Of a stretch of 64,000 nucleotides of DNA, positions 2,111-38,002 are shown in pieces. Under the pieces are notes generated by a model, which was not told the DNA's origin, made no database searches, and was given only the letters and a program-made list of their open reading frames with translations. A program made the position numbers and the translations under genes. Within the stretch, counting starts at the first letter, position 1, and the number at the start of each line of letters is the position of its first letter. The DNA is from a virus: positions 64,001-128,000 of IMG/VR virus record IMGVR_UViG_3300027712_001108; one strand, written 5' to 3'.

Positions 2111-2719
2111 ATGTCGTAGATTGAAATTGCCTGTACCGAGTTAGTATTCCACTTTAATAAAAAACACTTAGAAGATCCCACTATTCCAATGTGGGTTGTT
2201 AAGACCAAAGGTGAGACGTATTACGTCCATCATGTCAGCAGTGACATGCCATGGTCTACAAAAGAAACTCCCAACAATAACAGTACCAAAGGCAGCATTA
2301 AGTTTAAACGGTGTCATCTTGTTATTGATGACAACAATGACGCTACTATCAAGCCGTTGACAATGAGCGATGCTATACGTCTCAAAAAGACAGAGCCCAA
2401 GAAAATACGACTGATTATGGATTATCGCAAACAGATAGACGAATTTGTTGAATACTGCGATGAACAAGAGATTTGGCATGATGGGGTTCACATACTGCCG
2501 GGTAGCTGTGGTTCGAGATTCTATGCAACCGATATCAAAGAAGATGACCTGCTGCTTACTCGCATGCGGTTCCCACCTAAGATGTTCCGTGAACTGATGC
2601 CCAATGAATATCTATATGCGTACTACGATAAAGTAGGACCTGATGTAGAACCACCAGATTACGACGACGATTACTACGATGACGACGAAGACGAAGATGA
2701 CGATGAGGACGCAGCCTAA
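2111..2719 (+). CDS. Hypothetical protein with in-frame TAG at codon 3 and acidic C-tail (amber readthrough candidate)
   Basis: AAGGAG SD then ATG TCG TAG ATT GAA..., in frame with ORF 2189..2719. Confidence 0.7.
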
Positions 2720-2771
2720 ATCGTCAAAACTGTGTCAACCAAAGAAAAATAACGTTTTTTCACGTATTTGG

Positions 2772-2801
2772 TTGACACTTTTATAATTGGCTGTATAAAT
2801 A
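2772..2801 (+). promoter_or_regulatory. Overlapping sigma70-like (TTGACA) and late (TATAAATA) promoter
   Basis: TTGACA 2772-2777, TATAAATA 2794-2801. Confidence 0.65.
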
Positions 2802-2848
2802 GATATGTTGTAAGCAAAAATGGTTTTGCACAACAAACAAGGTTACAA

Positions 2849-2989
2849 ATGCAACTCACGCTTTCCATCAATACTTTTACACAGCACGGCTATCAAGCCA
2901 AGCCGTCAACATGGCTAGTTGCTGTTGATAGTATGAATTGTGAAGATCGCGCAATTGTATCAACAGACGGGGTGTCAAGGGAAACCTAG
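2849..2989 (+). CDS. Putative attenuator leader peptide (46 aa, all 20 amino acids, ends in TAG)
   Basis: ATG after AAGG; its 3' codons contain the antiterminator strand. Confidence 0.6.
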   Translation: MQLTLSINTFTQHGYQAKPSTWLVAVDSMNCEDRAIVSTDGVSRET

Positions 2990-3020
2990 CAGCGTAAGCA
3001 GCAAAGTTATACCAAAGCAC

Positions 3021-3050
3021 CCCGGGAATCGAAAGATTCCTGGGTTTTTT
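3021..3050 (+). terminator. Intrinsic terminator of putative attenuator
   Basis: CCCGGGAATC-GAAA-GATTCCTGGG followed by T6. Confidence 0.85.
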
Positions 3051-3095
3051 ATTAGGCAACAGGCATTGCCCAAACAGTGTCGCAGATGTTGCTAG

Positions 3096-3290
3096 TGTGG
3101 GATATGAGGGAACGTGGCCCTCACCGGACGCACTTAAAATGTTCTGGTAAACGGGCGGCCTTGGTGATGGAACTCCTTGTGTGGAGCGAAAAACCCAAGT
3201 TGATAGACGAGCACATCAGCCATCTAAAGTTAGAGATGGTGTAGTTGATGTGCTTCTCTATACACAGTAGGGCGAGCCTACTGTGGATGA
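3096..3290 (+). ncRNA. Unclassified structured RNA downstream of the attenuator
   Basis: Hairpins GAGGG/CCCTC, ACCGGAC/GTTCTGGT, GAGCACATCAGC/GTTGATGTGCTT; no credible ORF. Confidence 0.45.
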
Positions 3291-3356
3291 TTAATTGACA
3301 TATTGCCCAGGGTCCTGTAATAAATATCAAACACGAATTTGCAACAGGGATGTATT

Positions 3357-3584
3357 ATGGAAGATATTGGCAGACTTAGGAAGCTAAGCGGATTGAACGA
3401 AAGTGTGTATGCCGATGAAGCCATGCAGCATATAGAAAAGCTGATACATAAAATCAAACGTATACCCGACGATTTTATATATTTTGCAGCAAATTTGGAT
3501 CAATCCCAAGACCAAACTCACATACTTGAATTAGTAGCTAGAAGCCTAGAAAATGCTGCTGCTAAAATAAGAAATAATTCGTAA
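3357..3584 (+). CDS. Hypothetical late protein
   Basis: ORF after ATAAATA; RLRKLSGL motif. Confidence 0.55.
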   Translation: MEDIGRLRKLSGLNESVYADEAMQHIEKLIHKIKRIPDDFIYFAANLDQSQDQTHILELVARSLENAAAKIRNNS

Positions 3585-3612
3585 TCAGTATGATACCGTG
3601 GTATTATACTAT

Positions 3613-4200
3613 ATGATAGACAGATACATACCCAAGTTTCTAGACATACTGTATGATCCCACTGTGCTACAAGCAGTGCGGTTAGAAGAAATCAGAGATG
3701 CATTTCACTCTAACCAAATAATCAGTAAGAATTGTGCTATTGCTGCATTTGACAGTTTGCCTACAGCAGACAGAAATGTGTTGTACATTGGCTCATGGAT
3801 TGGATTTTTGACGCACTATATCTGCGACAACTATCCTCACTGCACAGTAACAGAACTAGACATTGATGTAAGATGTAAACTCATTAGCCAACGGTTTAAT
3901 GAACGGTTTACAAACTATATCAACAGTTATACAAGTGATGTAGAGTGTTTTGGTTACCTCAATAACTATGACACTGTAATCAATCTAAGCTGTGAACATA
4001 TTAGCAGCAACTGGATTGACAAACTACAAAAAGGCACTACATTAGTGCTACAAACGAATAACTTCAAAATTCCAGAACATGTTAACACTTGTGAAACACT
4101 GGATGAAATGCGCGAAAAATATCAGTTGAGTGAAACATACTATGCGGAAGCAACTGTGTTAAATGCGTATACAAGATTTACACTGGCTGGCAAACGCTAA
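3613..4200 (+). CDS. Class I SAM-dependent methyltransferase-like protein
   Basis: VLYIGSWIG, ELDID and VINLSCEH motifs. Confidence 0.65.
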   Translation: MIDRYIPKFLDILYDPTVLQAVRLEEIRDAFHSNQIISKNCAIAAFDSLPTADRNVLYIGSWIGFLTHYICDNYPHCTVTELDIDVRCKLISQRFNERFTNYINSYTSDVECFGYLNNYDTVINLSCEHISSNWIDKLQKGTTLVLQTNNFKIPEHVNTCETLDEMREKYQLSETYYAEATVLNAYTRFTLAGKR

Positions 4201-4215
4201 TCAGTGATATTAATT

Positions 4216-4289
4216 GGCCGGGTGGCGGAATGGCTACGCAGTGGATTGCAAATCCATGTACGGGGGTTCGATTCCCTCCTCGGCCTCCA
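4216..4289 (+). tRNA. tRNA-Cys(GCA)
   Basis: Cloverleaf, loop TTGCAAA, U73, CCA. Confidence 0.95.
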
Positions 4290-4607: not shown

Positions 4608-4714
4608 AATTCTGTTTTCACATGTTATATAGGACGGTGGTTCGAATCCATCCTTGGGGTACGCCCCGAGTAGCTGTAGTGGTTAGAGCAAGTATAACAG
4701 TTGAAAACAGAATT
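4608..4714 (+). ncRNA. Circularly permuted tRNA mimic (YrlA-like)
   Basis: T-arm, then acceptor stem closed by TACG loop, then D-arm, all on a long terminal helix. Confidence 0.7.
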
Positions 4715-27329: not shown

Positions 27330-28465
27330 TATTGGGTAGTAACACTGTTAAGTAGCATTTGGTGATTCTTATGTGAAACAACAGGGTTAAACGCTTTCAA
27401 CAATAAGTTGGGATGTTACAATTAATCACTGTATCTACCGACTGACGATAGAGTAACAGTATGTCGATGCAAACACAGTTAGCTTTAATACACCTAACAA
27501 CAGCGAATGCTCGTTGCTGCTGAAAGAAACGACGGATGATGCAGCTTTAAAGTCCGTTGAACGCTTCTGTTGTAGATGTATTAGAGTTTGGATGATACGG
27601 CCGTTGAGAAACGTGAATATCATCTATGAGATTGGGGGTTTAGCCTCAATAGGATAAGTGCAGTGATGCACCCAAAGCCGGAAAGCCTACATACCGGCGC
27701 TAGTAAAATAGTCCATCTAAACAAGCCTGAACCAGTGTTGACTCGGGCAACCGAAAGCAACACCCGTCCGTAGAAAGGCGGTAGGCAGTAAGTTAGGAGC
27801 TCTGTCCGAAAGGATAGTCGCAGAGCCAGTCGGTGAGCGATAAGAGGGTTGGCGCCCAAACAGAGTTCAGCCAAACTAACGAATGCTGACAGTTAACAGG
27901 TAGTTACAGTGTCTGAGCCCGCAAGCAAAGGCATGGTAGCATTTCAAGAGTGGAAGGGTTAGGCCCCGGATACTTGAAGAAAGGTCAAGTAGTTCGCAAG
28001 ACGAAAGACACGAGGTGTGTTGTATTGGGTATGCCAAAAGCATATTCAGCAGCGGTGGTAGCACATCTCAGATAGGTTGCAAATAACTCAGCGGTAGAGT
28101 AATTCCCTTCTAAGGAATCGGCGAAGGTTCAATCCCTTCTTTGATAAATGCAAAGTCTACCACGGTATGTTGTGTAAGGTGTCAAATACTTGAGGCGCAA
28201 GCCAATCAAGTTCAACAAAGCTCGCAAGGCAGCGTTGATTTGTACTAGAAGATTCGTAGCTCGCAAGGCTTAATGGTTCGCAAGATCAACGGATAATAAG
28301 GTGCAGAATAGCAGCATATGACGAGTCTACTGCCTGACTCTAAAAACGGCGACACTGTTAGTGGACCAGATTACCGCAAGGGATCTAGTGGATGTCGGAA
28401 GAAAGCAACTCGCAAGGTTGGTAATAATGTCCGAAGCATTAACATCGAACGTGTAATCTCAGCGT
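27330..28465 (+). ncRNA. Large ornate ncRNA, GOLLD-like (5' boundary uncertain)
   Basis: >1 kb with no credible ORF, dense GCAA/GAAA tetraloop hairpins, 3' GTGTAATCTCAG, inside a tRNA island. Confidence 0.7.
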
Positions 28466-37827: not shown

Positions 37828-38002
37828 GCGGTTGGTAATCCTGAAACCCTGAGACAAGTGAGGTGAGAACGCCCGTCTCACACACCAGCAATGGTAAAGT
37901 AGCGCAAGCGAAGAGATGCAGGAATCCTGTCTGTATGGCAGGTTGAAAACTGGGAACCTGCCACTTGTCAATACCCATTAAGATCGGCAGTAGGCCAACC
38001 AC
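37828..38002 (+). ncRNA. Unclassified structured RNA / 5' leader
   Basis: GGTTGGT/GCCAACC closure, GACAAGTG/CACTTGTC, GGCAGGTT/AACCTGCC. Confidence 0.45.

Follow-up and report, generated by a model that had tools for sequence, protein, structure and literature searches.

A candidate translation-dependent attenuator with a leader peptide of all 20 amino acids ahead of tRNA genes in uncultured jumbo phages

In the classical amino-acid attenuators, the position of the ribosome on the leader transcript picks the fold, and stalling for a charged transfer RNA (tRNA) leads to read-through into the genes behind. Textbook examples are the trpL, hisL, leuL, thrL, pheL and ilvGMEDA leaders of enterobacteria, where a short promoter-proximal open reading frame (ORF) lies before mutually exclusive hairpins. 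To our knowledge, the genes under leader-peptide attenuation have so far been amino-acid, synthetase-related and resistance genes only. The tRNA genes of phages were discovered more than 50 years ago, and what they do is still a matter of debate. Among the roles proposed are codon compensation, escape from tRNA-cleaving defences and replacement after host shut-off (PMC10264068, PMC11555353). Here we describe a unit resembling the enterobacterial leaders in a 64,000-nucleotide (nt) stretch of viral DNA (positions 64,001 to 128,000 of IMG/VR record IMGVR_UViG_3300027712_001108), hereafter the window, which carries a large tRNA island. An earlier note, made from the letters of this DNA, had proposed that the promoter, leader ORF and terminator found between 2772 and 3050 sense the tRNA pool. 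After comparison with relatives, we favour, as the probable reading, a ribosome-dependent attenuator that gates transcription of tRNA genes and whose leader is built to need every aminoacyl-tRNA.

The three parts of the unit were present on the + strand where the earlier note had placed them. The sigma-70-type promoter (2772-2799) has a −35 hexamer TTGACA at 2772-2777, a spacer of 16 nt and a −10 hexamer TATAAA at 2794-2799; a promoter scan passed over it only because the scan demands T at position 6 of the −10 hexamer. The leader ORF (2849-2989) starts with ATG at 2849, 6 nt behind a Shine-Dalgarno-like AAGG (2839-2842), has 46 codons including an internal Met, and stops with TAG at 2987-2989. 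It is followed by an intrinsic terminator (3021-3050) with a 10-bp stem at 3021-3044, a GAAA loop and six U. This was the top-scoring match of the terminator scan, the best in the first 20 kb, and its stem carries compensatory changes in relatives.

A pairing of 2968-2975 with 3017-3024 that competes with the terminator had been pointed out before, and it proved stronger than assumed. The 5′ arm of this helix, termed P1 (CGGGGUGU, 2968-2975, +), lies within leader codons 40-43 and would serve as antiterminator. The 3′ arm (GCACCCCG, 3017-3024, +) has 4 nt, 3021-3024, in common with the terminator 5′ arm. Inside the domain that P1 closes (2979-3013, +) are P2 (2979-2985 with 3006-3013) and a hairpin, P3 (2989-2993 with 2998-3002), with a GUAA loop; the leader stop codon is at the P2/P3 junction. 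P1 is part of the minimum-energy fold in the local and in the 206-nt context, and the bottom terminator pairs have a probability of 0.02-0.03. When the upstream sequence was shuffled, the terminator pairs had a median probability of about 0.9, and an equally low value came up in 0 of 200 shuffles for the window and in 9 of 200 for the homologous locus L002 (see below). Formation of P1 cuts the hairpin down to 6 bp and sets it apart from the U tract by UGGG; the remaining hairpin is, by its predicted structure, no longer a terminator.

The source contig is a viral record of 157.9 kb with an estimated completeness of about 30%. Its nearest named relatives, on the basis of one neighbouring protein only, are jumbo phages of Rhizobiales, and its close relatives are all metagenomic in origin. 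The first five copies of the unit were located through neighbouring proteins, the leader peptide and exact look-ups. One of them (L051) is 96% identical to the window unit, the similarity stopping right after the terminator; the other four (L002, L052, L022 and L023) represent a second lineage. The window group served to build a covariance model of the 97-nt switch, which matched three further loci, L012 (24 bits), L005 (17 bits) and L060 (28 bits). At L012 and L005, a TTGACA-type promoter and a small ORF (53 and 45 codons, respectively) are found in the same layout and in unrelated sequence. There, the 5′ arm of a helix lies in the last ORF codons and pairs with a 3′ arm that is partly shared with the terminator 5′ arm. 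From public metagenomes, a profile covering the four peptide types retrieved 42 called proteins of 44-77 residues; together with the window copy and two copies read from loci they make 45 peptides. In all, 14 DNA copies and 45 peptides were available from four diverged lineages of uncultured freshwater jumbo phages.

Other searches added no members. GenBank phages gave no match to the DNA of window 2600-3400 and none by tblastn with two leader types, so that no cultured phage is at hand. The profile of the first two lineages, run against 1.84 billion representatives, returned only the two known peptides and P0003, a repeat artefact. A 19-mer of the 3′ untranslated region (UTR) was searched in viral contigs, and six of its seven matches were coding sequence of an unrelated gene. 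At L007, a promoter, a 33-codon ORF and a terminator are in place, but there is no competing helix and the peptide has 17 amino-acid types; the locus was not taken as a member. The model matches at L013 and L054 are ordinary terminators behind longer genes.

The conservation of the competing helices was analysed at two depths. In the six close copies, P1-P2-P3 is the minimum-energy fold and the probability of the full terminator is 0.02-0.32; two pairs of P2 are changed on both sides, and P1 and P3 are invariant and hence uninformative at that depth. Ten aligned sequences of three lineages have standard pairs in 97.5% of the P1 cells compared to 76.6% in shuffles, none of 500 shuffles reaching the observed value, although the alignment was fitted to the structure of the model and the P1 counts lean towards it. 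Six of the eight P1 pairs are changed on both sides, and sliding the partner by 1-3 columns gives 28-62% pairing. In each of the 14 DNA copies a hairpin with a U tract is present and its 5′ arm shares 3-7 nt with the P1 3′ arm; the forced P1 fold and the forced terminator fold differ by −2.8 to +2.9 kcal/mol. Covariation of antiterminator and terminator had been suggested by the earlier note as a check, and the outcome is that the competition is kept and P1 covaries. These comparisons argue that P1 is a real helix and that only one of P1 and the terminator can form. We consider it very likely, judging from the aligned copies, that a translation-dependent terminator switch exists at these loci.

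Translation of the leader is the next requirement of such a switch. Between the window and L002 lineages, the start, stop and frame of the ORF are retained across a 3-nt indel at 47% nucleotide divergence. The two ORFs differ at 20, 20 and 23 of the 46 first, second and third codon positions, respectively, which equals the divergence of neutral sites; the yardstick is the third codon positions of flanking genes, 48-57% of which differ between these lineages. Within the L002 lineage, five of six variable leader sites are synonymous third positions, where 21% is expected. In the L012-type family every indel in the ORF is in frame, yet the core of this family is conserved at the nucleotide level. 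The leader, whose conservation the earlier note had wished to see checked, is kept as an open frame in the four diverged lineages. Because the frame is kept, the indels are in frame and one lineage has a synonymous excess, the leader ORF is taken to be translated. For the peptide itself AlphaFold predicted no confident fold (predicted local distance difference test, pLDDT, 52).

The composition of the leader peptide was then compared with chance. A count of the window leader agreed with the earlier note: 20 amino-acid types and 36 distinct codons in 46, with all four Thr codons and three each for Leu, Ala, Val and Ser. Among the 46-codon windows of the contig's long ORFs, the comparison that the earlier note had suggested, 2.3% hold all 20 types and 0.4% have at least 36 distinct codons. 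The values are 2.2% and 1.8% for small ORFs in any frame, and 2.9% and 4.8% under a model of independent, identically distributed bases. The codon diversity is thus unusual for coding sequence and largely what an ORF without codon bias would give. A complete amino-acid set in one leader is a 2-3% event under any of the models. No signal was seen in the match of leader codons to the anticodons of the island, 91% of leader codons being readable compared to 89% genome-wide.

The complete set is, however, not confined to one leader. All 20 amino acids are present in 44 of the 45 peptides, the sole incomplete one differing by one Cys-to-Arg change, and an internal Met is present in all 45. The four peptide types are only 20-41% identical, with three invariant alignment columns, and the rare residues Cys, His and Phe occur at different positions in different lineages. 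The second-lineage peptide is complete too, for which the chance is 0.066 given 19 shared positions. In a conditional test, residues shared with any other lineage were held fixed and the rest were redrawn from the amino-acid composition of the genome. The probability of a complete set was 0.079, 0.036, 0.062 and 0.027 for the four lineages, and the joint probability, with the discovery lineage excluded, was 6e-5. Because of this low joint value, the comparison is taken as evidence that completeness of the amino-acid set itself is under selection. The placing of singleton residues in conserved columns of the L012-type family gave p of about 0.15, our own estimate from the alignment, in a test that is too weak. 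This appears to be an unusual case in which the composition, and not the sequence, of amino acids is the selected trait.

The genes behind the unit were examined in the window and in the relatives. ARAGORN called 34 tRNA genes in the window, all on the + strand, which jointly serve all 20 amino acids, as had been stated before. The island proper (4216-34256, +) holds 32 of these calls and, with an upstream tRNA-Met, covers all 20. In every relative with enough downstream sequence, the unit is just ahead of a same-strand tRNA array. A dense array starts 0.35-0.7 kb past the switch at L012, L005, L055, L058, L060, L062 and L063, and a tRNA-Leu is 0.24 kb past it at L002, L022 and L023. The loci L055, L058 and L060, fetched with 4-kb flanks, have no tRNA in the 4 kb upstream of the unit. 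At L055 there is no consensus promoter from the terminator to the first 11 tRNAs, the next one being inside the array. The claim that the unit stands at the head of the island holds in the relatives and is inexact for the window, where two tRNAs are upstream of the unit and a promoter-like site and two ORFs come before the first downstream tRNA.

The features described above would allow the following course of events. From a strong early promoter the leader of 45-55 codons would be transcribed and translated, and the terminator would gate read-through into the tRNA genes. A ribosome keeping pace with the polymerase would, on reaching the stop codon, sit in the P1-closed domain; P1 would be blocked and the terminator would form. 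The stop codon is inside this domain in all lineages. The distance from the P1 5′ arm to the stop is 3 nt in the L005 type, 12 nt in the window and L002 types and about 18 nt in the L012 type, and a standard ribosome footprint at the stop would cover the arm in the first three and marginally in the last. In the window, a ribosome with UAG in the A site would protect about 2969-2999, that is the P1 5′ arm, the P2 5′ arm and P3, and termination would leave an RNA of about 245 nt. A ribosome stalled with about codon 36 or an earlier codon in the A site would leave 2968-2975 free. P1 could then form once 3024 emerges, ahead of the synthesis of the terminator 3′ arm, and the polymerase would read through to the tRNA genes. 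The amino-acid set is complete by codon 34 (window), codon 38 (L002 type), codon 42 (L012) and codon 40 (L005), the last two values being read by eye from the peptides; these codons would be within or at the edge of the sensing range in the four types.

Since each amino acid occurs once or a few times, a response would be expected to severe loss of a tRNA and not to mild starvation. Such loss may be caused by cleavage by host anticodon nucleases or by a shut-off of charging. A response of this kind would agree with the published proposal that host tRNAs destroyed in infection or by defence nucleases are replaced by those of the phage (PMC10264068, PMC11555353). The link of the switch to starvation or to anticodon nucleases is something we infer. 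We put forward more tentatively, as a suggestion that may well be wrong, that the complete leader, which would need elongator Met as well, detects the loss of any single host tRNA and that the phage then de-represses its own complete set, in a feedback-controlled circuit of counter-defence and self-sufficiency. In the window and L002 lineages, the UAG stop of the leader beside an encoded amber-suppressor tRNA might serve as a 21st check.

A number of points weigh against the attenuator as proposed. Single codons are weak sensors in classical attenuators. In the L012 type the P1 5′ arm is further from the stop, so that only a ribosome sitting in the enclosed loop could have an effect, and the case is weaker there. 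When the whole ORF is included, the terminator prevails in the L005-type fold (probability 0.995), and equilibrium folds in general vary with the context that is folded. A low terminator probability was also obtained at three of eight terminator-like sites of the contig, a comparison that is uninformative as only eight control sites passed. The fitting of the P1 alignment to the model, mentioned above, belongs here too. The window is the least tidy member, with two tRNAs upstream of the unit and its first downstream tRNA, the tRNA-Cys at 4216, 1.17 kb off. It has a promoter-like site at 3295-3323 (+; TTGACA, 17 nt, TAATAA), ahead of ORFs at 3357-3584 and 3598-4200, and because of this predicted promoter its downstream genes are not dependent on read-through alone. 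Control in the window would thus be at most partial, in line with the reservation of the earlier note about further promoters. L002-type relatives and L051 have a promoter about 100 nt past the terminator, which makes control partial there as well. Finally, the window and L002 lineages agree at about 95% of positions 2985-3024, whereas their neutral sites differ by about 50%; this near-invariance, and the conservation of the L012-type core, exceed the needs of a simple antiterminator.

Some of these points would suit a plain small early gene with its own promoter and terminator, of which the peptide or the RNA of about 245 nt is the functional product and in which the overlap with P1 only tunes the terminator. 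A small regulatory RNA such as the trp attenuator RNA released in Sinorhizobium would be one example. The unit is self-contained, the similarity of the window and L051 ends right after the terminator, and promoters follow the unit in the window, L051 and the L002 type. The purifying selection on the peptide in the sister (L002) lineage and the nucleotide-level conservation of 2985-3024 and of the L012-type core are also what such a gene would give, and a released attenuator RNA and its leader peptide are known to act in trans (PMC7298713). A plain gene leaves unexplained, on the other hand, why all 20 amino acids are retained in four lineages at 20-41% identity (p about 6e-5), why P1 covaries together with the terminator arm that it overlaps, and why the unit is constantly placed ahead of a tRNA array. 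The near-neutral evolution of the peptide between the window and L002 lineages (20, 20 and 23 differences) and its lack of a confident predicted fold also speak against this reading, and complementary 10- to 12-mers, as possible targets in trans, number 16 in the contig compared to about 14.5 expected, which is the chance level. We regard a plain gene as unlikely, and note that a role of the RNA or the peptide in trans could exist alongside attenuation.

Equally improbable in our estimate is an attenuator that senses not each tRNA but the overall capacity for translation, such as ribosome supply, elongation rate, or ribosome-targeting toxins or antibiotics, in the manner of the bmrB-bmrCD or ABC-F leaders. 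Its architecture would be the same as that of the tRNA-sensing attenuator, and any slowing of the ribosome would flip the switch too. The described leaders of this class have alternative stem-loops embedded in a long ORF and answer many translation inhibitors (PMC4191407). A general sensor needs no complete amino-acid set, yet completeness persists here while the sequence drifts, and the genes behind the switch are tRNAs, a specific remedy for a shortage in decoding.

A sensor of amber suppression has very little probability in comparison. Here read-through of the leader UAG would carry the ribosome through the terminator region and block the hairpin. The amber-suppressor tRNA in question (anticodon CUA, 2003-2077, +) is encoded 0.9 kb upstream of the leader and has an encoded CCA end; it was missed by ARAGORN and scores 41 bits with the Rfam tRNA model. 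A tRNA-Met (1921-1997, +) lies before it, and both are upstream of the leader unit. TAG is the rarest stop in the contig (19 of 207 long ORFs). All relatives have the suppressor tRNA, behind which comes a gene whose early in-frame TAG is conserved, and the frame past the leader UAG is open through the terminator in all six close homologues. Two of three frames are open over 2990-3050, however, which makes the open extension uninformative, and its frame differs among the homologues by a 1-nt indel. The L012-type and L005-type leaders end with TAA, so that amber is not in the conserved design and could be at most a lineage-specific addition. Genome-wide recoding of TAG was considered separately and is not supported by the stop-codon counts.

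The last reading concerns a ligand. An Rfam scan of 2700-3400 with expectation values up to 10 gave no riboswitch match, only one chance-level match on the other strand; no Rfam match to a T-box was obtained, and the window antiterminator is without a UGGN bulge. A riboswitch-like or protein-binding element, in which the P1-P2-P3 domain binds a small molecule, protein or tRNA that stabilises the antiterminator, is highly improbable. In its favour, the domain's loops and junctions hardly change from the window to the L002 lineage at about 50% divergence of neutral sites, and a helix closing a three-helix domain just before a terminator is the usual layout of an ON-riboswitch. The 5′ half of the domain, however, lies in the translated part of the leader, and the domain's interior is unrelated between the window/L002, L012 and L005 types, which speaks for the ribosome as effector and against a ligand pocket that is conserved.

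Thus the tRNA-gating attenuator remains the reading that we prefer. Further elements were noted around the unit. On the promoter side, a perfect 11-bp inverted repeat (2733-2777, +) has the arms TGTCAACCAAA (2733-2743) and TTTGGTTGACA (2767-2777) separated by 23 nt of AT-rich DNA; the −35 hexamer falls in the right arm. Five homologues keep both arms unchanged and differ in the spacer, and the repeat occurs once in the 158-kb contig. It is a possible operator for a dimeric regulator, and the attenuator does not account for it. Both promoter hexamers are likewise invariant in five homologues and the spacer between them is variable. The promoter, 3′ UTR and terminator motifs each occur only once in the contig, and the idea of a repeated regulatory cassette was dropped. 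At L055, three tandem TTGACA-17-TACAAT promoters, about 90 nt apart, are found at 3733-3944 ahead of the leader ORF. The transcript of the window would begin with a predicted stem-loop (2806-2835, +), whose pairing is kept by compensatory changes; three pairs are changed on both sides between lineages (alignment columns 12:27, 14:25 and 15:24).

Past the terminator, a conserved non-coding stretch (3076-3290, +) without Rfam match shares blocks with L055, L012, L060, L005 and L058 at the same place. Stretches of about 200 nt lie between switch and tRNAs in three lineages (window 3076-3290; L055 4392-4610; L012 6540-6770; L005 5713-5900). The blocks AGTG, GGAACG, ACT.TAAAA, GGGCGG, GATG and AAAG are invariant, and the consensus fold is weak. 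The L005-type stretch has GGGAAAGTCCG, which we take, as a lead only, to resemble the P4 motif of RNase P RNA. A read-through transcript of the window would enter the 3076-3290 stretch first, and the attenuator does not account for the stretch. At the corresponding place L051 has a gene with a T5orf172/MUG113 domain (2228-2788), a family typical of phage homing endonucleases. In the L012-type lineage an ORF of 54-55 codons is conserved right after the terminator and ahead of the non-coding stretch (L012 6370-6534, L055 4233-4397, L060 4243-4410). It is the first gene that read-through would reach, and a precomputed Pfam look-up gave no hit for it. L055 also has a tRNA-like gene at 4610-4696 that was missed by ARAGORN. 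It has a T arm and a CCA end and, by eye, a GUA anticodon with a long extra arm (Tyr-like), and its score with the Rfam tRNA-Sec model is 28.6 bits, below the threshold.

Other observations concern the suppressor tRNA and the island. In the window, the region 2003-2719 holds the amber-suppressor tRNA and then a gene that meets an in-frame amber codon early on. This gene apparently starts, in reality, with the ATG at 2111 in AAGGAG-N9-ATG, and its in-frame TAG is at 2117-2119. The arrangement of a Shine-Dalgarno sequence, ATG, one to three codons and TAG, and then a stretch of 25 conserved residues that shares the frame of the annotated ATG (2189), was found in the window and at 14 related loci, which include L051, L002-L005, L007, L011-L013, L022, L023, L025, L031 and L052. 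Expression of this conserved protein seems to be gated by the suppressor tRNA. At L007, a distant relative, two overlapping ARAGORN calls of transfer-messenger RNA, one of them permuted, are located just upstream of the suppressor tRNA (2344-2888). Within the island of the window a full-length GOLLD RNA was found at 28012-28465 (Rfam RF02032, 217 bits), and a tRNA-Arg(TCT) call at 28077-28147 is within it. A skipping-rope RNA is present at 37853-37969 (RF02924, 49.8 bits with a threshold of 36.7).

If the attenuator is as proposed, the phage would measure the tRNA supply and turn the island up when decoding fails, and leader-peptide attenuation would extend to tRNA genes. Evolution would have made a leader that samples the whole amino-acid alphabet, and a compact element of about 280 nt could act as a general sensor of translation stress. 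Full-text literature searches gave no account of such control of phage tRNA genes or of a leader with all 20 amino acids.

Compared with the described systems, the unit is close to several of them in different respects. The bmrB-bmrCD leader of Bacillus subtilis (PMC4191407) and the msrD leader of the ABC-F class (PMC10314930) similarly have a leader of about 50 codons with alternative stem-loops and an intrinsic terminator, which has to be translated and answers to any slowing of translation. They respond to ribosome-targeting antibiotics and control transporters or ribosome-protection factors, and amino-acid completeness or tRNA genes are not reported for them. The rnTrpL/peTrpL pair of Sinorhizobium meliloti resembles the phage unit in that the terminated RNA and the leader peptide can have functions of their own (PMC7298713, PMC7968998). 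Unlike the phage leader, it derives from a Trp-specific 14-codon leader of a bacterial trp operon. A function of the terminated RNA, by analogy with rnTrpL, could explain the conserved 3′ part of the phage unit. The enterobacterial leaders have runs of one to three amino acids and precede genes for biosynthetic enzymes, whereas the phage leader has all 20 once or a few times and precedes tRNA genes. The phage unit also differs from them in having no evident 1:2 anti-antiterminator or pause hairpin, in having no sequence homology to them, and in the position of the antiterminator 5′ arm inside the ORF, upstream of the stop. The controlled genes (tRNAs), the whole-alphabet leader and the antiterminator arm within the ORF set the unit apart, and the logic is that of the classical attenuators.

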